DNA of 12,726 bases from a virus (lineage: Duplodnaviria; Heunggongvirae; Uroviricota; Caudoviricetes), in the IMG/VR virus record IMGVR_UViG_2585427728_000005. One strand, written 5' to 3'. A program made the translations under genes and the position numbers. The notes beneath the pieces are model-generated. The model was not told the origin of the DNA and ran no database searches. It saw only the letters and a program-made list of their open reading frames with translations. The stretch's first letter is position 1. Each line of letters starts with the position of its first letter. Positions 678-11,939 of the stretch are shown here, in pieces.

Positions 678-1100
678 TCATAAAGGCCCGGGCCGAGTAA
701 CGATGAACAAACCCACATCTGTTACAGGTAAGTCGGAATTCATAGTTATGGATATTTTCCCGATCATGTCCCTCATATCCCGGATATCCCAATTCCATCC
801 AACGGATGTATCACCATTAACAGTATTACCTGTTTGTCGGAGTGCAAATGCATTGACATTTTTGGCACTAATTGAAATATCGCTAGAACCATCAAAACCA
901 ACTCCAGCAATTTTTCGTGCTGTTTTCAGCTTTGTTGCAGTAGCGGCATTGCCGGACAGCTCCCCAGAAAGGCCACCGCTGAATGTTTGTCGATTGGTCC
1001 AGGTATTCGCTGTACTGAGTAACGGTATTTTCTCCCCGCTTGTGCCGAGTTCTCGTAAACCGAGGTTTTGGATAATGGCCGTTTCCGGCCTGCATGGCAT
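678..1100 (-). CDS. Tail-fibre protein C-terminal (variable) cassette with no N-terminal constant domain of its own; probably the invertase-proximal alternative cassette of an invertible segment
   Basis: Contains the conserved tail-fibre motif ATATKLKTARKIAGVGFDGSSDISI that I recall from P2 H, Mu S and P1 S type fibres. The frame is open upstream only to a stop at 1125-1127, so no constant part is encoded on the invertase side. The gix-like site at 1050..1075 lies inside its 5' end. Confidence 0.6.
   Translation of the reverse strand: MPCRPETAIIQNLGLRELGTSGEKIPLLSTANTWTNRQTFSGGLSGELSGNAATATKLKTARKIAGVGFDGSSDISISAKNVNAFALRQTGNTVNGDTSVGWNWDIRDMRDMIGKISITMNSDLPVTDVGLFIVTRPGPL
1050..1075. other. 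gix/hix-like recombination (crossover) site for the adjacent serine invertase
   Basis: TTCTCGTAAACC-GA-GGTTTTGGATAA: two 12-bp imperfect inverted half-sites (9/12 symmetric) around a central GA dinucleotide, about 55 bp upstream of the invertase start. It differs at only two positions from the Mu gix sequence as I recall it (TTCCTGTAAACCGAGGTTTTGGATAA). Confidence 0.65.
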
Positions 1101-1757: not shown

Positions 1758-2252
1758 TCAGAACAGCCCTTTAACTGAACTGGCCGCGCTGTTAAGAGAT
1801 GATGTCACCTTATCTTTGAAGCCGGACAGCATATCACTGAACGATGAGGATTGCAGGCGCTCCCGCAAATCCTCATCACAGCGTTCAAGGGTCAGTGAAA
1901 ATTCTATCTTTTTCGCCTTACCGTAGCGATCAAACTCGGAACGGGTCGTATTCGTTTCAGTCAGCACATACATGCCGTAAATCTGCCCGACGCCATCAAT
2001 CAGAGGCCAGGGTCGTCCTGTATACGCCTGCGTGGTCAGCAGCGACAGCGATACTTCGCCACCTGTAATTTCAGGATAAAGCACACCAGAAAGAACGATG
2101 CGATCATCTCCTGCACCGATATACTGCCAGCTTGCTGAACGGTTAACGCGTTCATTTTTCACATGCCGCCAGCTTTTGTTTTGCTGTAACTGCTGATGCG
2201 GCAGCGTGCGCAGCTCAAAAACAAACATGCCGTAGATCATCATCATGGCCAT
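1758..2252 (-). CDS. U: P2-type tail protein gpU
   Basis: About 160 aa, immediately downstream of the tape measure gene on the same strand, matching P2 gene order T-U. The N-terminus (MMMIYGMFVFELRTLPHQQLQ) fits my recollection of the gpU family. A GAGGAG Shine-Dalgarno lies upstream; the true start may be the second or third Met. Confidence 0.75.
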   Translation of the reverse strand: MAMMMIYGMFVFELRTLPHQQLQQNKSWRHVKNERVNRSASWQYIGAGDDRIVLSGVLYPEITGGEVSLSLLTTQAYTGRPWPLIDGVGQIYGMYVLTETNTTRSEFDRYGKAKKIEFSLTLERCDEDLRERLQSSSFSDMLSGFKDKVTSSLNSAASSVKGLF

Positions 2253-2258
2253 GACTCC

Positions 2259-5075
2259 TCAATCTTTATCGTAAAAACTGCCACGCCCGGCACGGGCGCG
2301 CCGTTCCATTTCTGCCCTGACCATTTCACCTACCAGTTTCGCAAGTTCGCGGGGATTCTGCGTAACAACGTTATGCAGATGAACATGAATTTCACCGCCA
2401 AATCCGGAGGCAACCGGCTCCCGATTACGGGAAGCTGCAGGAACTGATGCCACTGGCGATCGTATGGCCTCCGCCACCGGGCGGGAGCTGGCCGCAACAA
2501 CAGGGACCAGCGCCGGAGGCAGCGGAGCCGGGACCACGGGTGTGATATTAATTGCGGGGGCAGGCTTACTGACCTGCGCAATCTTCCGCTCCTGCCACTC
2601 CCCACGAACGGCAAGTGCGCGGGGCAGGTTCTTAAAGACAATATCGCCGGGGCCAATGCGTTTTTTCGTCTCATCAACCAGCTTACCTGTGTTATCAGCA
2701 ATTTTGCTGAGTCTGCGCAGCGTACCGGTATTGCTGTCTGTGAGCGGTTTATTGTCTTTGGGGTTATCACCTCCGGTACCATTGCCATTTTCCACAGGCT
2801 TCGGCGGATTGATTTTCGCCAGGTCCCCCTGAAGCAAGGCAACCTTGTCCTGAAGAATGGCCGCACGCTGTGCGTCTTCGATTTTCTTGCGCGCCCTTTC
2901 CGCTTCATCCGGAAGGACGCCAAGTTTTTCAAGTATCCACGCCAGCGTATCCAGCAGCATTTTTGCAGGTGTCAGAACAAGCTGTAACGCACCGCCAAGA
3001 ACGTTACCGAATATCTCGCCAGCACTGGTACATTTATCCAGCGTTTCCTTGCTGGACTCCATCGGTGACAGCAGCGATTTAAACCAGTTAAACACCTGGC
3101 TGATCCCGCTCCCGATTGCGTCAAAAACAGGACCAAACCGTTCAAAAGTTTCGCGCAACGGGGTCAGCCTTTCCATAATCCCGCTGAACACCCCGGCAAA
3201 AAATGCCCTGATGGGATCCCAGTATTTCCAGATAAGAACGGCAGCTCCGGCAAGCGCAGCCACGATAAGACCAACCGGACTGAACAACGCCCCGATAGCG
3301 CCTCCCAGCAAAGAAACGGACCCCGTCACCATTCCCCATAGTGCTGGCAGGACCCTGACAGCATTCATTGATCCGGTCAGGAGAGAAAAACCAAGACGCA
3401 GTTTTGCCAGCGGACCAGCAAGCACACCAATAGCCAGCGACAACGAGCCAACCGTTGCAGTCATTGCCAGCAACGCACCGCCTGCTATCAGTAGCTGGCG
3501 CGTCAGTGCCGGATGGGCCTGCGCCAGCGCCGTCACCCTTGATACCACCCGCGTGAGCCACTGCGTGACAGAACGCAGCGGACCGTCAATCAGATCTGCA
3601 ATGCGGATGCGCAACCCTTCCCATGCACTGCCGAGTGATTTCAGATCGCCGTCAAGGTTGTTGGCCATAACCTTTGCTGTGCGTTCAGCCTCACCGCGCG
3701 CGCCTTCAAGTTCTTTTCTCAGTTTGGGTAAGGAACCGTCACCCGCTGCATCAACGAGCGCCATAAACGATGTGAAAGCCTCTTCTCCGGCAATGTCCTT
3801 AAAGAACGATACCCGGTCAACTTCCCCGTATTTGCGGGTGGCTTTATAAAGGTCGGCCAGCACATCCTCCATCGGGCGCATTTTGCCCCCGGCATCCGAG
3901 ACGGACACGCCCAGCTCTTTCAGAGCTTCTGCCCCCGCCTTTGGCGGTGATGCCAGACGAGCCAGGCTGGCACGCATTGCCGTCCCGGCATCACTCCCTC
4001 TGATGCCCATATTCGCCAGCACGCCAGCCATCGCTGCGGCCTGCTCCAGCGATATTCCCAGCTTCCCCGCCACCGGACCTGCATATTTCATGGTTTCGCC
4101 CAGTGCGCGAAGGTCAGTGTTGGTACGGGTAAACGCTGCGGTGAGTGTGTCACCGACCCGGTCCATCTGGTCAGCAGAAAGGCCGAACTGCGTCAGGATA
4201 TTTGAGCCAATATCTGCCGTCTCGCCGAGATCCATACCGCCAGCCGTTGCCATGCTCAGCACGCCGGGAAGCGCAGCCTGAATGGCCTGCGGAGTGAAGC
4301 CAGCCATTGCAAGAAATGCCTGTCCACTGGCGGCATCGCCTGCGGTGAACTGCGTTTCAGAGCCAAGTTTTAACGCCTGCTCACGCAGCGCTTTAAACTG
4401 CGGGCTGTTCTGGTCGATTCGCGTCAGTGCCTGAACGCGGGACATCTCTTTGCCGAACCCGATCGCAGGCTGCAAAAAACGCCCGGCAGCATAGCCGCCC
4501 GCCGCTGCCGCACCAATTGCCAGCGCACCACCTGTTTTCAGTTTTCCCGCTGTTTCCTGCGCGCGCGAATACCGCTCACGCGCCCGCGTTACACGCGCAA
4601 GCGCCTGCCGTTCGCGTTCAAGCTGGTTGTTGTACTGTTCGGTGCGTCTGATGGCCTGCTGGATGGTGTTATCGCTGCCTGTCAGGGAAATGCCGTGGCG
4701 TTTCAGCTCTCCGCCAAGTTCCCGCATTTTCTGAATTTCCCGTGTGCGCGATTCATTCAGGCGTTCAAGCCGGGTGCTTAACTGCCGCATCAGCTTTTGT
4801 TGTTTTTCGCTGAGCACTGTACCCGTGCGTTGTAACTGATTAAGGGCGTTAAGCTGGCGTCGTGCTTTCAATATGCCAGCATCCGCTTTACTGACAGCGT
4901 CACGGGCGCGCTCAAATGAACGCGCCTGACGCTCGAGATTTTTGATCGCCCCCTGCGTTCGCTGGATGGAGTCACCAAGCTGCCCCATCAGGCGGCGGGC
5001 GTTTTCGGCAGGCCGGGTCAACCTGTCAACGGCGCTGAAAGCGACCCGGATATCAAGAGTCTTCATTATCTGCAT
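2259..5075 (-). CDS. T: Tail tape measure protein (gpT-like)
   Basis: 938-aa ORF with a long coiled-coil N-terminal region and Gly/Ala-rich hydrophobic segments typical of tape measure proteins. It lies between the chaperone gene E/E' and U. The start may be the internal Met at 5066. Confidence 0.85.
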   Translation of the reverse strand: MQIMKTLDIRVAFSAVDRLTRPAENARRLMGQLGDSIQRTQGAIKNLERQARSFERARDAVSKADAGILKARRQLNALNQLQRTGTVLSEKQQKLMRQLSTRLERLNESRTREIQKMRELGGELKRHGISLTGSDNTIQQAIRRTEQYNNQLERERQALARVTRARERYSRAQETAGKLKTGGALAIGAAAAGGYAAGRFLQPAIGFGKEMSRVQALTRIDQNSPQFKALREQALKLGSETQFTAGDAASGQAFLAMAGFTPQAIQAALPGVLSMATAGGMDLGETADIGSNILTQFGLSADQMDRVGDTLTAAFTRTNTDLRALGETMKYAGPVAGKLGISLEQAAAMAGVLANMGIRGSDAGTAMRASLARLASPPKAGAEALKELGVSVSDAGGKMRPMEDVLADLYKATRKYGEVDRVSFFKDIAGEEAFTSFMALVDAAGDGSLPKLRKELEGARGEAERTAKVMANNLDGDLKSLGSAWEGLRIRIADLIDGPLRSVTQWLTRVVSRVTALAQAHPALTRQLLIAGGALLAMTATVGSLSLAIGVLAGPLAKLRLGFSLLTGSMNAVRVLPALWGMVTGSVSLLGGAIGALFSPVGLIVAALAGAAVLIWKYWDPIRAFFAGVFSGIMERLTPLRETFERFGPVFDAIGSGISQVFNWFKSLLSPMESSKETLDKCTSAGEIFGNVLGGALQLVLTPAKMLLDTLAWILEKLGVLPDEAERARKKIEDAQRAAILQDKVALLQGDLAKINPPKPVENGNGTGGDNPKDNKPLTDSNTGTLRRLSKIADNTGKLVDETKKRIGPGDIVFKNLPRALAVRGEWQERKIAQVSKPAPAINITPVVPAPLPPALVPVVAASSRPVAEAIRSPVASVPAASRNREPVASGFGGEIHVHLHNVVTQNPRELAKLVGEMVRAEMERRARAGRGSFYDKD

Positions 5076-5289
5076 TCCCGCTGCGAAGTGCCGCCCGCTC
5101 GCGCCAGCTAACCACTTCGCCGGGCGTCATCATGAAGATTTCGGCGGGCGACCAGTTAAAAATGGCGGCAATATCCGCCACCAGATCTTCGATGTGCTCA
5201 AAGCACACCAGGGTGATTACGCTGCCGTCTCCTGCACGCTCTTCGCGCCAGAGTCTGGCTCGCTCATAAAATTTACAGCCACAGCGCAC
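5053..5289 (-). CDS. gpE' extension: the -1 frame part of the tail assembly chaperone fusion E+E', reached by programmed frameshift from gpE
   Basis: A -1 frame relative to gpE is open from 5319 to a stop at 5053 and overlaps both the 3' end of gpE and the 5' end of gpT, the conserved arrangement of tail chaperone frameshift genes. The slippery heptamer is at 5268..5274. Confidence 0.6.
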   Translation of the reverse strand: MRCGCKFYERARLWREERAGDGSVITLVCFEHIEDLVADIAAIFNWSPAEIFMMTPGEVVSWRERAALRSGNADNEDS

Positions 5290-5591
5290 AACTGAATAAA
5301 ATCGCGTGACGACATTTTTTTAATCATCACTTCATCCAGTCGTGGCGAGGTCACGCGAGGCAACAGCGTGAACATGGTATCCGCTTTCAGATTCAGCACA
5401 TCAGACAGCGACAGACCACGCAGGGATCCAGCCTGCTCAATAGCCCCGGTGATCTCCACATACGTGATTTTTTCGCCACCACGCTCAATTGGTCGGGTCA
5501 GTTTTACGCCACGTTCGACAGCCATATCCTCACCTGCCGTCACATCATCCGCCACGGTGTTATTCCGGGTTTCAGTATCGATGTCTTTCAT
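5217..5591 (-). CDS. E: Tail assembly chaperone gpE (0-frame product)
   Basis: 124-aa ORF between the tube gene and the tape measure gene, with an AAGGAG Shine-Dalgarno 7 nt upstream of the ATG at 5591. Position and the overlapping -1 frame match the P2 E/E' arrangement. Confidence 0.7.
   Translation of the reverse strand: MKDIDTETRNNTVADDVTAGEDMAVERGVKLTRPIERGGEKITYVEITGAIEQAGSLRGLSLSDVLNLKADTMFTLLPRVTSPRLDEVMIKKMSSRDFIQLCAVAVNFMSEPDSGAKSVQETAA
5268..5274 (-). other. Candidate -1 programmed ribosomal frameshift slippery heptamer A_AAT_TTT in gpE
   Basis: In the gpE frame the minus strand reads GTA AAT TTT ATG (V N F M). The heptamer A-AAT-TTT fits the X_XXY_YYZ pattern, and a -1 slip gives AAA TTT TAT (K F Y), which is exactly the sequence of the overlapping frame. 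Confidence 0.4.
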
Positions 5592-5646
5592 CAGTTGTCT
5601 CCTTTTCAGTCAGAGGCGACGCACTGCGCCGCCTGCATATTATTTA

Positions 5647-6159
5647 TCAGCCAAGCCCAAGCGCGGAACGGATACGGTCAGGCACAATGTCCTTGCCGTC
5701 CTTCCGGTAGATGTGGTTCAACAGGTCGATTTCCCACAGCGGGCGATCGTTAACGCTCAGCTTGTAGTAGGTGTTTTTGACAGCGTAAGTGTGTGATGTG
5801 GCTTCACCCTGTTTGGCTTCCCCCATATCAATTTCCGTCACACGCCCGCGCATCTCGATTTCATACAGATCACTTTCTGCATCGGTGTAGTATTCACCCG
5901 CAAAACGCAGCAGCGTGCCGTCAATCGTGCCGCCATATTTAAGGAACAGCTCACGAACTGCGCCCCCCATGACAAAGCTCGCATCAAGCGCGGAGTCGTC
6001 CAGACCGAGATCAATACTTACCGCCCCCATCATGCCACCACCCCGGTAGCTGTCGGTTTTGCGCGTCAGCTTAGGCAGAGTGACGGACGTCACCTTACCC
6101 ACTTCGTTTTCACCATCCACAAACAGCGTAAAAAAGCGAAGATGTTTTGGCACAGCCAT
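5647..6159 (-). CDS. FII: Tail tube protein (gpFII-like)
   Basis: 170 aa, immediately downstream of the sheath gene; the sheath stop and tube start overlap as TGATG at 6157-6161. Size and position match the P2 FI-FII pair. Confidence 0.85.
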   Translation of the reverse strand: MAVPKHLRFFTLFVDGENEVGKVTSVTLPKLTRKTDSYRGGGMMGAVSIDLGLDDSALDASFVMGGAVRELFLKYGGTIDGTLLRFAGEYYTDAESDLYEIEMRGRVTEIDMGEAKQGEATSHTYAVKNTYYKLSVNDRPLWEIDLLNHIYRKDGKDIVPDRIRSALGLG

Positions 6160-7343
6160 CAGGCACCTCCCAGCACCGCAAATGCGGGTTCAAAGTATTC
6201 ATCAGTAAACGTCTGGTAAAGCTCCATGTCTTCCAGTGGCGGAACGGGCGTATATTTGTAGCGAATGCGCACACGCCCCTGACGTAAATCCGTGGTGCTG
6301 TTATCCACCACGTCATACCAGCACTCCGCACCAATCAGTTTCCCGGCAGTAACCAGTGAATCCAGTTTTGCCCTGATGGCACTGATAACATCCTTCACGT
6401 TCGCAGGCGTCAGTGGACTGTCGATGGTTTCAAACTGCGCTTCCGCAATTGAATCAGCCAGCACCTGTGCGGTTCGGGTATACACCTCAAAGATGTAGGC
6501 GTTCGTTTCCGGTGTGCGGTTGCCCCAGAAGCGGAACCCGTTGCGACGAATAATGGTCGTGATTTCTTTGTTGTTGAGGCTGTTGGCATCACTGTCTTCG
6601 GCCTGCAACGACCAGAACACATGCCTGGACATCCCCAGCACATTTTTAACCGGAACGTTGGACAGCGATTTGTGCCAGCCCTGCTCATGGTCAATGTACG
6701 CACGAAGGCCGCACGCATAAGCAGGCGCGGGGAACGTTTCGTTTTCGCCACTTTTCGGGTTGTAGGCGATGAAGTCCGGCCATAAGAGCATCACTTCACG
6801 TTCGTTGAATTTCTGGCGGTAGGTAATCGCTTCAGCCATCGTGTTACAGCCGTGACATGAGGCATACACAAACGCACGCAGTTTACCCGCAATCACGCAC
6901 AGGGATTTTGTCACCGCCTCCGTGTCCAGCTCCGGCGCGGCCAGAATACGCGGACGGTATCCGATGCTTTCATCCTGCTCTGCAACAAGCAGCGCATACA
7001 TCCCCGTATAGCTGCCGTCATCCTCAGAACCACCGATAACCAGTTGATCCTGCGTCTTTTCGTCTTCTTCTTTGTGTTCAGCCACGCGAACGACGATCAC
7101 CTTTGTGCTCACCTGGTCTGCGATGGCCTTAAGCGCACGATAAAGCGTCCCCGTTGTCCCGCATTTTCCCAGCACGTCATTGACGCGGGTCAGCAGTGTG
7201 GGCTTGTTCAGCGGGAACAGCTTCGCGTCCGCATCATCCGCCGTTGCCACGATACCGATAACACTGGAATCAACATCATTAATCGCTGTTACCAGGTCGG
7301 TATTTTCCGTAACACGGGCACCATGAAAACGAGTTTCACTCAT
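6159..7343 (-). CDS. FI: Contractile tail sheath protein (gpFI-like)
   Basis: 394 aa (P2 FI is about 396 aa), first gene of the FI-FII-E-T-U block, with an AAGGGG Shine-Dalgarno upstream of the ATG at 7343. Confidence 0.9.
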   Translation of the reverse strand: MSETRFHGARVTENTDLVTAINDVDSSVIGIVATADDADAKLFPLNKPTLLTRVNDVLGKCGTTGTLYRALKAIADQVSTKVIVVRVAEHKEEDEKTQDQLVIGGSEDDGSYTGMYALLVAEQDESIGYRPRILAAPELDTEAVTKSLCVIAGKLRAFVYASCHGCNTMAEAITYRQKFNEREVMLLWPDFIAYNPKSGENETFPAPAYACGLRAYIDHEQGWHKSLSNVPVKNVLGMSRHVFWSLQAEDSDANSLNNKEITTIIRRNGFRFWGNRTPETNAYIFEVYTRTAQVLADSIAEAQFETIDSPLTPANVKDVISAIRAKLDSLVTAGKLIGAECWYDVVDNSTTDLRQGRVRIRYKYTPVPPLEDMELYQTFTDEYFEPAFAVLGGA

Positions 7344-7500
7344 AGCTTCAGCCCCTTGTATCCGTTAAATGATTCGGCAACAATCATCACCCACCACGCG
7401 CGTAATCTCACCCCTGCGCCGTTCTCCCGACCCGGCGACAACAAAAAGCAGTAACCCCCTCCGCACGCACATGCGACCATGCCACACAGGGAGGGAACAG

Positions 7501-8610
7501 ATGACCGATACCACCATGCAATTGCTCAGTCAGGGCACAGACCCCGTGAAAATGCCGGATTTTGATATTCTCGCGGAGGGTAAAACGCTGTCAGGCGTGG
7601 CAGAGCGCCTGATGACCCTGTCACTGACCGACAACCGGGGATTTGAGGCGGACCAGCTCACCATCACGCTGGATGATGCGGATGGTCAGTTGCAGCTACC
7701 GCAACGGGGCGCGCGCCTGACGGTTCTCATTGGCTGGAAAGGCGAACCGCTGACAGAAAAAGGCACTTACATTGTTGATGAAATCGCACACGAAGGACCG
7801 CCGGACAGGCTGACTGTTTCAGCCAGAAGCGCAGATTTTCGGGATGAATTTAACGTTAAACGTGAGGTGTCCTGGCATGATGTGACCGTTGAGCGTGTGG
7901 TATCCGCCATCGCTCATCGGTATGGTCTGAAACCGCAAATCAGCGAAATGCTGATGGATATCGAAATCGACCACGCCGACCAGACCGAAGAAAGCGACAT
8001 GTCCTTCCTTACGCGCATGGCGGAAATGCTGGGCGCAATCACCACGGTAAAAAGCGGTAATCTGTTATTCATCATGCCCGGTGGTGGCGTGAACGCACAG
8101 GGCCAGCCGTTGCCCTCGTTCGCCATCACGCGCAGCAGTGGCGATCGCCATCAGTTCCGCATTGCTGACCGCGAAGCGTATACGGGTGTACGCGCCTACT
8201 GGCTTGATCTTAATTACGGGAAAAAGAAAAAAGTCAGCGTGAAACGCCGCAAACCGCCAAAACCCAAAAAGGAGAAAAGCAGCAGCCGTGAAGGTGATTA
8301 TATGGAAGGCGCGGAAGGAAATGTGTTTGTGTTACGCAAGACTTATCAGAACGAGCAGGCAGCAAGACGCGCAGCGGCGGCAAAGTGGCAGCAGCTACAA
8401 CGCGGAGCCGCATCATTCTCCATCACACTGGCTCGTGGACGCGCAGAACTCTACCCCGAAATGCATGGCACGGTAACAGGATTTAAAAGCGAGATTGATA
8501 ATCAGGACTGGATTATTGCGAAAGCCGATCACACCATTGATAACAGTGGCTTTACCACGCAGCTTGAGCTTGAGGCAAAAATCCCGGAATGGATAGCGGA
8601 AACAGAGTGA
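7501..8610 (+). CDS. D: P2 gpD-like tail protein (late control D family)
   Basis: 369 aa from the ATG at 7501, which has a strong GGGAGGG Shine-Dalgarno 5 nt upstream; the ORF-track start at 7369 is probably too far upstream. Size and sequence character fit the gpD family, and it lies upstream of ogr as in P2. Confidence 0.8.
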   Translation: MTDTTMQLLSQGTDPVKMPDFDILAEGKTLSGVAERLMTLSLTDNRGFEADQLTITLDDADGQLQLPQRGARLTVLIGWKGEPLTEKGTYIVDEIAHEGPPDRLTVSARSADFRDEFNVKREVSWHDVTVERVVSAIAHRYGLKPQISEMLMDIEIDHADQTEESDMSFLTRMAEMLGAITTVKSGNLLFIMPGGGVNAQGQPLPSFAITRSSGDRHQFRIADREAYTGVRAYWLDLNYGKKKKVSVKRRKPPKPKKEKSSSREGDYMEGAEGNVFVLRKTYQNEQAARRAAAAKWQQLQRGAASFSITLARGRAELYPEMHGTVTGFKSEIDNQDWIIAKADHTIDNSGFTTQLELEAKIPEWIAETE

Positions 8611-8820: not shown

Positions 8821-11613
8821 CTAAATCTCAGCAATCTTTTTTTTACTGTGCTGTTCTATTATCAACTCTGCTTCCGCTTGGTATTCATGAGCTAACTCTC
8901 GAAGAATTCGGGCAAATCGATGAAAGCCTAGAAGTTCCATTGCATCAGACTTAGTGTGATATTGTTGGGCTAACTCCAATTCCGGTTTACCTTCTGGGTC
9001 AACAATGTAGACACCACGCGAATTTATTATCGCATTCTTATAACCAGTACGCACTTTATCAAGTTCACGTCTATTCAAAAACTCGGCCAGTTCTGGAAGT
9101 ATCCAATGCTCGTCATTTGCAGGGCTAAAAATTAATATGCTTCCAATCCTATGATAAGCAAAATCTAAATGGCCTGACTTTTCGCATTCTGTTTGGACAA
9201 AATCAAACCAGTTATTAAACGCCTTGACATCAAACTTGCCTTCAGCATCAACACCCGGAATCTTTTTCCAATCATCAAGTAAATAGAGTGAGTTTTTGGC
9301 AATATTTATTTCACTTTCAGATAGTTCTTTACTTGCTTTTTGAAATTCTGATCGATACGCATATTGAATGACTTCACAAAAAAAACTGGGTTCACTTGCA
9401 AGTTTTTTCTCTAATACTTGAGGATGCAACGAATCATTAGCCCCCCTGTTAATTACAGGTAGGTATGCCCATTCAATCTTTACTAAGTCGTCATCTGAAA
9501 CAGTGTTATCATTTTGAATATAATTCACAAGTTCATTAAATGAGTGAATATCAAACCGCTCAATATTTTCTGTGGTTCTAATTGATTGCAATAGAGCAAG
9601 CACAACCTTACTGCTATCAACTGAATTATCGATATGCAAAATTTTAGATAAACAATCTATTGCCATCAAGGGACGGTCTACTTTAATCAAGCAGTCTATA
9701 GCAAAATAAATTTCTTCCGTTGAATCACAGCTGTATGCATTAACAAGAGTATTTTTCCAATACTCGAAAGGAAAATCATCAAATGAAGCGTTTAATGCAT
9801 CCCATGTTTCTTTTTTAAACGGTAACAAAAGAAAAAAAGCAATCTTTTCTTGAGCACTCCAGTCATTAATAACTGTCAACACCCATGATTTTCCTTCTCT
9901 GTAGTTTTTAGCCTGTACATAACCAGAAGCAAGAGAATTTTCCTTTTTAATATCACTAACAATAAGTTTTTTCAGTATATCTAAAGGAATTTCTAGATCT
10001 TCTGCGACCAGGCTACTACCAACAAACTCAGGCCTTTCAATAGATAGAGAGAATTCTAAGACTCCATCAATACCATTAATAGCATATATTTCGCATATTG
10101 ATTGCCCTCGTTCTTTTGTCAACCTTTCTTCTTGGTCCCGCCAGTTTCCATTTTCATCAAATAGGAAGTAATTGTTTTGTGCAAAAAGTCGCTTGCTATA
10201 AAGCATAGGATCTTCGGGCTTCAAGACTGTAGAAACATCTTTGATTTTTTCATTTTGTTCTGGTTGCATTGCCCAATAAGCACCTGAGAATCTTTTGTTT
10301 TTGTTATAAACTTCTAAACATTTTTCCCACACCGCTAACTTCAATTCAGCACTATCTGTTTTTTTAGAAAAATCATACAATAGTTTAATTGCATCATCGA
10401 ATTTAAATGGCGCTAAACTACCAATATTTTCAACTAAATCAACAAGTCTTAATGATGATTTACTTGCCAATTCAATTGTTAATTGAGTGTATATTTCAAT
10501 CTGAGTACGGCACTCATCACCCGATGGCCTTTTATTAAAACCGTTAGGAATAAAGTTTCTAAAAGTTGGAATATGTGTGCCAGATGTTACTTGCGTGTTG
10601 TTGGGTAGCAACTGAACTAAAACACGCCATGCTGTATCGGGCCACTCCCTTGCCAATGCGTTGAAAGCAGCAATACGTCTATCTATATCAGCTGTAGTAT
10701 GAGGAAGCCATGGTAACAATATGTTGATTATCGAGTTAAGTGGCCTGTTAGCCCAATTGCCACCAGGATCATGGCTATCCAGCTCCCCTAATATTACTAA
10801 AGAGCGAGATAAATAGTTAGGCGCCCAAGCTAATCCTTCAATAGCCCATAGCAGTCCTGTCATATAATTCCGACCTGAAATTCCACCGATACCTTCCTGT
10901 GCAAAAAGTGAATCAAATGGCTTGTCTTGGTGAGATGCAGCATTTTCCACTTCGTCGATAAAACAGTCAGGAGCACTTTCCGCAAGCATAACTTGAATAT
11001 CTTGCGTACTAGCCCATAATTGCCAGCTAGAAGCCGAAAAAACCTCTTTAACCACACTTGAGGCGCAATATTGCCCTTTATATTTTGAGCAATTAGTAAG
11101 TAACTCTTGCTTTGTTGCAACTAATGCCAACCCTTCGGATAGTCCTTTCCTTATTAATCGGCTGTGTGGTAAAACCTTCCCATAAATTACTGCTGCATAA
11201 CGCTCTTCAGGTGCCAGTTCAAATTGTGGGTCGATAGTTTTAAAAACGGATACAACAGTCGTCCGAAACAAATCCAAATGATCATCGAATAATCTTGACG
11301 ATACCGTTTGAAATGTTTGTATTCTATCTTTAAAACTCCAAGAACCTCTCTCATGAATCAAAGGACTATCTTGCATCCCTTCAATTATTCTTAATTTTCG
11401 AATCCAACTGTCATATGACTCGCTAATAAGGCTTGTAATTATATCAATATCACCATTATTTTTTTCATCCCAGCAACCGACTAAAACAGCAATCGCTAAC
11501 TCAGTCGCATAATCAACATTATCACTATTGTATACAATTAAGTTACCAGCAACATTATGGCCTGTTCCGGTATGATTTTGACTAATTGAACTGCAGCTAT
11601 GAATGTTATCCAT
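8821..11613 (-). CDS. Large (~930 aa) protein of unknown function; second gene of the AT-rich cargo operon between D and ogr
   Basis: Uninterrupted 2.8-kb ORF in AT-rich DNA, where long open frames are unlikely by chance. ATG at 11613 with a GAGG Shine-Dalgarno 8 nt upstream; the ORF track starts at a GTG at 11619 that overlaps the upstream stop. I see no Walker A, HExxH, HNH or RT motif and cannot assign a family. Confidence 0.85.
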   Translation of the reverse strand: MDNIHSCSSISQNHTGTGHNVAGNLIVYNSDNVDYATELAIAVLVGCWDEKNNGDIDIITSLISESYDSWIRKLRIIEGMQDSPLIHERGSWSFKDRIQTFQTVSSRLFDDHLDLFRTTVVSVFKTIDPQFELAPEERYAAVIYGKVLPHSRLIRKGLSEGLALVATKQELLTNCSKYKGQYCASSVVKEVFSASSWQLWASTQDIQVMLAESAPDCFIDEVENAASHQDKPFDSLFAQEGIGGISGRNYMTGLLWAIEGLAWAPNYLSRSLVILGELDSHDPGGNWANRPLNSIINILLPWLPHTTADIDRRIAAFNALAREWPDTAWRVLVQLLPNNTQVTSGTHIPTFRNFIPNGFNKRPSGDECRTQIEIYTQLTIELASKSSLRLVDLVENIGSLAPFKFDDAIKLLYDFSKKTDSAELKLAVWEKCLEVYNKNKRFSGAYWAMQPEQNEKIKDVSTVLKPEDPMLYSKRLFAQNNYFLFDENGNWRDQEERLTKERGQSICEIYAINGIDGVLEFSLSIERPEFVGSSLVAEDLEIPLDILKKLIVSDIKKENSLASGYVQAKNYREGKSWVLTVINDWSAQEKIAFFLLLPFKKETWDALNASFDDFPFEYWKNTLVNAYSCDSTEEIYFAIDCLIKVDRPLMAIDCLSKILHIDNSVDSSKVVLALLQSIRTTENIERFDIHSFNELVNYIQNDNTVSDDDLVKIEWAYLPVINRGANDSLHPQVLEKKLASEPSFFCEVIQYAYRSEFQKASKELSESEINIAKNSLYLLDDWKKIPGVDAEGKFDVKAFNNWFDFVQTECEKSGHLDFAYHRIGSILIFSPANDEHWILPELAEFLNRRELDKVRTGYKNAIINSRGVYIVDPEGKPELELAQQYHTKSDAMELLGFHRFARILRELAHEYQAEAELIIEQHSKKKIAEI

Positions 11614-11618
11614 AGACA

Positions 11619-11939
11619 CTACCTCGTAATTTTATTTCCACCAATATTATCACCAGTGCCACTATGGTTTTGAATAATGACAGTTGCTGCATGAGGTTTT
11701 ATAGACGAGAGTATTTTTTGAATTTCACTACTATCCAATAGTTTTCTTTCAATTGCTATTTCACTCATTTCATCGTTCAAAGACAGTTTTTCAAGCTCTT
11801 TAGCTAAAGCAGGGGCTACAGCCTCATCAACAACCCAATTTTTTAACTTTTCTTTTATTGAAGTTGCAGTAATCGAAACATGATGTTTAAGCATGTCATA
11901 AACTATGCCAGAAAGTATCGTCGAAGATAAAAAATCCAT
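11619..11939 (-). CDS. Small (106 aa) predicted helical protein of unknown function; first gene of the cargo operon
   Basis: ATG at 11939 with an AAGGGA Shine-Dalgarno 8 nt upstream. Its TAG stop (11619-11621) lies 6 nt from the ATG of the large gene, suggesting translational coupling. The C-terminus carries the motif QNHSGTGDNIGGN, which is also present at the N-terminus of the large protein. Confidence 0.75.
   Translation of the reverse strand: MDFLSSTILSGIVYDMLKHHVSITATSIKEKLKNWVVDEAVAPALAKELEKLSLNDEMSEIAIERKLLDSSEIQKILSSIKPHAATVIIQNHSGTGDNIGGNKITR

Follow-up and report, generated by a model that had tools for sequence, protein, structure and literature searches.

A P2-type tail chaperone pair of a P88-like phage, predicted to slip on A_AAU_UUU in place of the lost T6G heptamer

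Introduction

The tail assembly chaperone gene E of phage P2 lies between the tail tube gene (FII) and the tape measure gene (T), and its product is extended by a −1 ribosomal frameshift into a second frame, E', which has no start of its own and overlaps the start of T. The slip is placed at a Phe codon near the 3' end of E, on the heptamer T_TTT_TTG (T6G), at a site reported to be without RNA structure (PMC3091744), and among P2-like phages the slippery sequence is conserved as T6G, T7G or T7C (PMC3091744, PMC3931495). The present work concerns the corresponding genes, gpE and E', on the minus strand of a 12,726-nucleotide stretch of viral DNA (IMG/VR record IMGVR_UViG_2585427728_000005; the whole stretch is called the window below). 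The pair is very probably that of a P88-like (genus Xuanwuvirus) phage of the P2 family, which has lost T6G and slips by −1 on A_AAU_UUU.

The window pair resembles P2 E/E+E' in its position between tube and tape measure, in the homology of both E and E', in an E' frame that lacks a start and overlaps that of the tape measure gene, and in the slip codon, a homologous Phe codon close to the 3' end of E, with no structure downstream. It differs in the heptamer, since P2 uses T_TTT_TTG whereas the window has only A_AAT_TTT, one codon upstream. The window gpE is also the longer of the two (124 versus 91 amino acids), as is the predicted fusion (179 versus 142), and the overlap of E and E' downstream of the site, 51 nt in the window, exceeds that of P2. 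E' is reportedly essential in P2, and the efficiency of the P2 frameshift is said to be about 10%.

The G/GT-type chaperones of phage lambda and other dsDNA phages likewise consist of two overlapping open reading frames (ORFs) between the major tail protein and tape measure genes. Slippage by −1, at low frequency and on a heptamer of the form X_XXY_YYZ, yields a short and a long chaperone in a fixed ratio, neither of which is expected in virions (PMC5009743, reviewing Xu, Hendrix and Duda 2004). Lambda slips on G_GGA_AAG, and the window pair has no sequence similarity to lambda G/T; by homology with lambda G/GT and P2 E/E+E', the short and long forms may chaperone the tape measure protein and recruit tube subunits (PMC5009743). 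As to the heptamer itself, the A_AAU_UUU and A_AAU_UUA sites of eukaryotic RNA viruses belong to the same class: tRNA-Asn occupies the P site, and the A-site codon is UUN. The slip site of Rous sarcoma virus (RSV) is A_AAU_UUA, and AAAUUUU is named in papers on roniviruses, umbraviruses and insect nidoviruses. Unlike the window site, where no structure is detectable, these sites work on eukaryotic ribosomes and need a pseudoknot or hairpin downstream. The window site also falls outside the stimulator-dependent class of −1 programmed ribosomal frameshifting (dnaX, IS911, IS3), no downstream structure and no upstream Shine-Dalgarno (SD) element having been found.

The gpE and E' reading frames

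The gpE-like ORF, in the 0 frame, extends from the ATG at 5591 to the TAA at 5219..5217 (5591..5217, minus strand; 124 amino acids) and matches phrog_103 (E=1e-36), its match to PF10109 being weak (20.6 bits, below the cut-off of 25). The −1 frame, whose upstream limit in the window is a TAA at 5322..5320 (minus strand), ends with the TGA at 5055..5053. An earlier note, made from the sequence alone, had described this frame as open from 5319 through the gpE stop to 5053 and over the tape-measure start, which is borne out by the coordinates of the E' ORF (5053..5319, minus strand). The two frames overlap by 100 nt in the window, and the end of E' also overlaps the tape-measure ATG at 5075. Of E', the fusion is predicted to include 5268..5056, or 71 codons.

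The −1 extension carries the E' domain, PF06528 (Phage_P2_GpE), at residues 47-82 (46.3 bits against a cut-off of 23, E=2.9e-12), and matches phrog_1756 with E=4.8e-42; a search of NCBIfam gave no match for either the gpE frame or the −1 frame. By tblastn, gpE is homologous to P2 E (38% identity, E=2e-15) at a place where the alignment runs across two frames, and the hypothetical fused protein has two-frame tblastn matches in 403 phage records, among them P2, phiCTX and KS14. In the records of KS14 and Menos the fusion is annotated as a joined coding sequence (CDS). The pair also occupies the P2-type location, on the same strand as its neighbours and between the tail tube gene (FII-like, directly upstream of gpE; 6159..5647, minus strand; PF04985, E=4.3e-46) and the tape measure gene (5075..2259, minus strand, with its ATG at 5075..5073; PF10145, E=1.1e-57). 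The E/E' −1 frameshift pair is therefore real, and the description of it in the earlier note as a conserved frameshift pair of tail chaperones holds on the strength of the PF06528 match, the tube and tape-measure flanks and the two-frame match to P2 E+E'.

The slippery heptamer and its conservation

The predicted slippery heptamer, A_AAT_TTT, lies at 5274..5268 (minus strand); AAT (5273..5271), for Asn, would occupy the P site and TTT (5270..5268), for Phe, the A site. It fits gpE in the X_XXY_YYZ phase, and no other canonical in-phase heptamer occurs in the 100-nt overlap, as had been claimed; it falls in addition on the slip codon that is homologous throughout the family. Alignment with P88 and Chuche places the degenerate homologue of the P2 heptamer at 5271..5265 (minus strand), where the window reads T_TTT_ATG in place of T_TTT_TTG; T6G is broken at base 5267, where T has changed to A (as read on the minus strand) and the codon TTG has become ATG. 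The conserved T6G of P2-like phages is thus absent from the window, and the earlier remark that the site differs from the P2 slippery sequence proved correct, P2 and most relatives having T_TTT_TTG one codon downstream.

Relatives of the window pair were surveyed at 80 diverse loci found with the E' profile, together with named phages; for the latter, statements on heptamers cover the parsed loci only, and Menos, ENT90 and YenM_56.17 are left out. At the surveyed loci a canonical heptamer stands at one homologous Phe codon, which in the enterobacterial lineages lies 51-57 nt before the E stop, and every intact locus of the 80, like the parsed named phages, has at least one canonical heptamer. 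The slip context is GGT TTT TTG in P2 and CCT TTT TTG in phiT5282H and 3LV2017, while phiCTX, KS14 and a Ralstonia phage also have T_TTT_TTG. The P88-type context, GTA AAT TTT TTG, contains two overlapping heptamers, A_AAT_TTT and T_TTT_TTG, whereas that of the window is GTA AAT TTT ATG.

P88 and Chuche, Escherichia phages of the genus Xuanwuvirus (Peduoviridae) with 87-88% nucleotide identity to the window region, form the nearest lineage with the ancestral allele. They share the gene order of the window and its GTA AAT TTT context, but P88 carries both heptamers where the window type keeps only the upstream one, and a −1 TGA in P88 cuts the overlap to 82 nt. Closer relatives are Citrobacter phage Shae_phiSM and Xuanwuvirus P884B11, which are 99.4% and 99.1% identical to the region around the site. 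In 120 of 120 close viral contigs GTA AAT TTT is invariant, the next codon being ATG in 63 and TTG in 57, and two contigs combine P88-type flanks with the ATG allele. A scan of genome contigs gave two loci, both of the P88 type.

A second lineage shows the same switch. Reipivirus-type Klebsiella phages (for instance Kp4846-1) read GTC CCT TTC TTG, so that T6G is broken by TTT to TTC and only C_CCT_TTC is kept, a perfect heptamer one codon upstream; they differ from the window in the heptamer and in the host genus. In a neighbour-joining tree of E+E', each lineage with the upstream register only is sister to a lineage with both registers, and the lineages with the downstream register only are basal. 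As read from these sequences, the upstream-only state appears to have arisen twice independently, in the window clade and in the Reipivirus type, and redundant overlapping heptamers may have let the ancestral T6G be lost.

The position of the frame switch is indicated by the two frames themselves. Upstream of the Phe codon the −1 frame meets stops within 20 codons in 9 of 12 representatives (in one of them, L116, a TAA abuts the codon), and the 0 frame is the better conserved, with a mean amino acid identity of 0.40 versus 0.27 for the −1 frame. Downstream of it the −1 frame is the better conserved (0.50 versus 0.35) and has the motif G.W..ER.GDG, a region of the −1 peptide that is kept across lineages of 45-60% identity. 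The switch is pinned to the Phe codon by these upstream stops and by the flip of conservation from the 0 to the −1 frame at this point.

A dead prophage does not explain the loss of T6G, since the ATG allele is found in a plaque-forming phage and is common in E. coli. It is carried by Shae_phiSM, and phiSM is fully functional, forms plaques and lysogenises (PMC6456863). The 561-nt region is present in 1370 of 5426 complete E. coli genomes, and 525 complete E. coli genome records, about 10%, contain the exact 65-nt context that includes the ATG allele, both ORFs being intact.

Some records of the survey deserve separate mention. Mannheimia phage vB_MhM_2256AP1 (Peduoviridae) has G_GGA_AAG about 21 nt before the E stop, at another position in E, as noted by its depositors. 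Two IMG/VR loci (L118 at about 690 and L120 at about 689) have T7 or T8 for T6 at the slip site in comparison with a near-identical third (L119); T7 would bring E and E' into one frame, as a constitutive fusion, and T8 would put E' in the +1 frame, and the variants are either homopolymer sequencing errors or real length variants of the slip site. A 226-kb contig of a Firmicute assembly (NZ_JBQPOM010000071.1, 'Vagococcus sp. WN89Y') has a P88-type gpE with the same slip-site context, at a locus near-identical to one from Salmonella, and the assembly is probably contaminated or mislabelled. The record OR820920.1 ('Bacillus phage vB_BpuM-ZY1', recorded host Bacillus pumilus) has a typical proteobacterial P2-type E/E' with GGT TTT TTG, and its Bacillus host looks doubtful.

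Proposed mechanism and its weighing

In the proposed mechanism, most ribosomes would read gpE (124 amino acids) to its stop at 5219..5217, and a minority would slip back by one nucleotide on A_AAU_UUU at 5274..5268, where tRNA-Asn on AAU in the P site and tRNA-Phe on UUU in the A site would re-pair with AAA and UUU. Reading would restart in the −1 frame at TAT (5268..5266) and go on to the TGA at 5055..5053, giving a 179-amino-acid E+E' protein made up of 108 residues of gpE and 71 of E', with the E' domain at the C-terminus and the junction ...CAVAVNF/YERARLW... (the slash marks the change of frame). The tryptic peptide expected at this junction, with Phe in the A site or with a slip in the P site only, is DFIQLCAVAVNFYER. 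Relative to the P2 site, the slip register would have moved one codon upstream: T6G was lost, and a heptamer already present in P88-type relatives would have taken over.

Several points weigh against this proposal. Canonical in-phase heptamers occur in the long ORFs of the window at a rate of 0.0039 per codon, by which 0.13 would be expected in the overlap, and when the codon order of gpE was shuffled, the final 34 codons held one or more canonical heptamers in 8.7% of the shuffles. Chance would thus place one such heptamer in the overlap about 10% of the time, which is not rare, and the heptamer alone proves little. Reporter assays in E. coli put −1 frameshifting on AAAUUUU without a stimulator near background, at 0.070% (PMC4066793), and searches at the site turned up neither a structure downstream, nor an SD-like element upstream, nor an Rfam element. 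The same protein would result if only tRNA-Phe slipped, on U_UUU, and the sequence does not tell such a slip from the tandem one; in the window clade, moreover, the −1 frame opens from the A-run discussed below, where a minor alternative junction may lie. Both the junction and the efficiency in this clade rest on inference.

The search for stimulators bears on the suggestion, made in the earlier note, of a hairpin or pseudoknot 5-9 nt downstream of the heptamer. Folding of the window and of 12 lineages and a scan with Rfam gave no sign of one. The 131 nt from the site in the window fold with z=−1.56, and 60-nt downstream windows from the 12 lineages have z from −1.2 to +1.3; in 100-nt downstream windows P88 and P2 reach z of about −2.1, with differing folds. 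Small hairpins in the window (GCCAG-ACU-CUGGC; CUCUGGCGCG...CGUGCAGGAG) were rejected as candidates, being broken in P88. The Rfam scan of 4950..5650 at E<=1 returned three chance-level matches only, all away from the site, and no SD-like element is present about 10-14 nt upstream of the heptamer, where the sequence, CAGTTGTGCGCTGTGGCTGT, contains no GGAG, AGGA or GAGG as read by eye. The absence of a stimulator agrees with the lack of structure reported for the P2 site, and on its account the frameshift efficiency is unpredictable from the sequence.

The weight of A_AAT_TTT derives from its place at the conserved slip codon of the family and from its invariance in relatives, and the E. coli reporter data speak for its competence once a stimulator is present. 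With IS911 stimulators AAAUUUU reaches 0.355%, and with the IS3 pseudoknot 11.4%, while UUUUUUG in the same reporters gives 0.118% without a stimulator, 0.247% with IS911 stimulators and 0.765% with the IS3 pseudoknot (PMC4066793, Table S3). AAAUUUU in the slip phase is under-represented in E. coli genes (z=−9.1), H_HH.U_UU.Y ranks with the best motifs in E. coli, an A-site UUY is highly shifty, and C_CCU_UUC, the heptamer kept in the Reipivirus type, gives 23% with the IS3 pseudoknot (PMC4066793). On account of these data, the upstream register is, in an enterobacterial host, no less plausible a slip site than T6G.

Alternative explanations

The first alternative is that the slip still takes place in the ancestral P2 register, with tRNA-Phe on UUU 5270..5268 in the P site and slipping on U_UUU. 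The register T_TTT_TTG is the one assigned to P2 and most relatives, the UUUU run is kept in the window, and in E. coli the UUUU tetramer by itself yields 0.139%, or 0.80% when a pseudoknot is present (PMC4066793, Table S2). With AUG and tRNA-Met in the A site, the junction would be ...NFM/ERARL... and the peptide of such a tandem slip DFIQLCAVAVNFMER; with an empty A site, that is, a slip in the P site only, the junction would be the one proposed above. Yet tRNA-Met would face UAU after the −1 slip and could not re-pair, so that T_TTT_ATG is not a slippery heptamer, and both lineages that have lost T6G have a perfect heptamer upstream, a coincidence of about 1/16 if the upstream register were irrelevant. 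This alternative is accordingly considered improbable.

It is very improbable that E' is made without any frameshift, as a separate 51-amino-acid protein that starts at the GTG at 5208..5206 (minus strand). This is the model of RefSeq/PGAP and several phage records: a 156-nt CDS is called there as 'GpE family phage tail protein' by PGAP in identical E. coli prophages, and P88 and Chuche are treated likewise. GTG 5208 is the sole start codon before the E' domain in the window; however, no SD-like motif lies 3-16 nt upstream of it in the window, there is no ATG, GTG or TTG between slip site and E' domain in 6 of 12 relatives, and the conserved −1 peptide with the motif G.W..ER.GDG begins upstream of the GTG. 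In P2, too, E' is produced by frameshifting, as an extension of E (PMC3091744 and PMC3931495, citing Christie 2002). Independent initiation was rejected on these grounds: E' was found to have no initiation signal of its own, and the GTG start is judged an annotation artefact. Public records that call E' a free 51-amino-acid GTG ORF include L172 at 693..848 (window 5208..5053) and L002 at 2083..2238.

A shift at the A-run, ATT AAA AAA ATG, whether by a ribosomal −1 slip on AAA_AAA or by transcriptional slippage, would give the junction ...VMIKK/NVVTRFYSVVRCGCKFYER... and is extremely improbable. The earlier note had put forward this A7 run as a second, non-canonical slippage candidate at 5314..5320. 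It is indeed non-canonical, being T_AAA_AAA in phase, but it lies at 5321..5315 (minus strand), and its candidacy fails on the −1 stops that most relatives have before the Phe codon. The −1 frame of the window clade is open from 5319, just inside the run, and runs of the A7 kind are prone to shifting and under-represented among E. coli genes (PMC4066793). On the other side, the tetramer A_AAA stays near background in the reporters, at 0.125 / 0.256% (PMC4066793), and the −1 frame in that stretch is as poorly conserved as given above for the region upstream of the Phe codon. Of the 9 codons there that differ between the window and P88, 7 are synonymous in the 0 frame, as counted by eye. Seven A residues are also short for efficient slippage of RNA polymerase. 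Since P88-type relatives have the run but also a −1 TGA between it and the Phe codon, the run is excluded as a conserved slip site, and it is judged not to be a functional site. GAT TTT ATT at 5304..5296, also tried, was rejected as non-canonical; P88 has GAC there, which makes the −1 TGA.

That the TTG-to-ATG change killed frameshifting in a decaying prophage in which no E+E' is made, as might be supposed from the destruction of the textbook T6G and from a window that is a 12.7-kb metagenomic fragment, is hardly credible and effectively refuted by plaque-forming, lysogenising phiSM (PMC6456863), the allele being found in isolated phages (Shae_phiSM, by reading; P884B11/520873/503458, by 97-99% identity to the window region) and, with intact ORFs, in the contigs and E. 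coli records counted above.

Implications for the P2 family

The pair of the window, most likely slipping on A_AAU_UUU, adds an ordinary case to a well-known recoding system, and is distinctive in that an overlapping neighbour stands in for the textbook heptamer. How the mechanism is understood does not change; what is gained is a modest evolutionary point and a practical one of annotation. In about 10% of complete E. coli records, and in related phages, E' is annotated as a free 51-amino-acid GTG ORF, where the correct model would be a 179-amino-acid E+E' joined at 5268; a motif search with the P2 T6G would miss a site of the window type. The evolutionary point is that of a natural experiment, in which an essential recoding signal appears to have been shifted by one codon through a two-heptamer intermediate, twice independently. 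The clade thereby offers a simple system in which to ask what share each register has, and how the chaperone ratio is set without RNA structure.

A broader reading, tentative and on balance unlikely, is that the signal of the P2 family is a two-register decamer, X_XXU_UUU_UUG, and that the T6G assignment is incomplete or, in part of the family, even misplaces the register; in that case a lineage could change register and retune the ratio of E to E+E'. A slip of tRNA-Phe on U_UUY is the sole element found in every surveyed lineage except the Mannheimia phage with its G_GGA_AAG. If the two-register reading were true, nature would have supplied single-register mutants in the window clade (A_AAU_UUU only) and in Reipivirus (C_CCU_UUC only), on which it could be put to a direct test.

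Neighbouring genes and further observations

According to Pfam matches and the ORF list, the minus-strand order around the pair is sheath, tube, E, E', tape measure and gpU, with the sheath gene at 7343..6159 (minus strand; PF04984) and gpU at 2252..1758 (minus strand; PF06995). A gpD-like baseplate hub gene (PF05954) at 7369..8610 lies on the plus strand, divergent from the sheath gene, in contrast to the P2 FETUD operon, which has gpD after gpU. RefSeq phage records give the tube the label 'head closure', and in Shae_phiSM (L001 1..1142) the sheath bears the label 'late control gene D protein'. The virions of phiSM are siphovirus-like with non-contractile tails according to PMC6456863; its genome, 99% identical to the window, encodes a P2-type sheath and tube.

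Further in-phase slippery heptamers are present in the long ORFs of the window at 4479, 4548, 8842, 9385 and 9838 (all minus strand): the tape measure gene has T_TTT_TTG and G_GGA_AAA, and a 932-amino-acid ORF has A_AAA_AAG and two T_TTT_TTT. This ORF (11619..8821, minus strand) matches phrog_18693, of unknown function, and has no Pfam or PADLOC match. Its start is overlapped by the stop of a gene for a 106-amino-acid protein (11939..11619, minus strand) that consists wholly of a Het-E N-terminal domain (PF20701, E=7e-39), and the two may be a cargo or defence-like pair beside the tail module.

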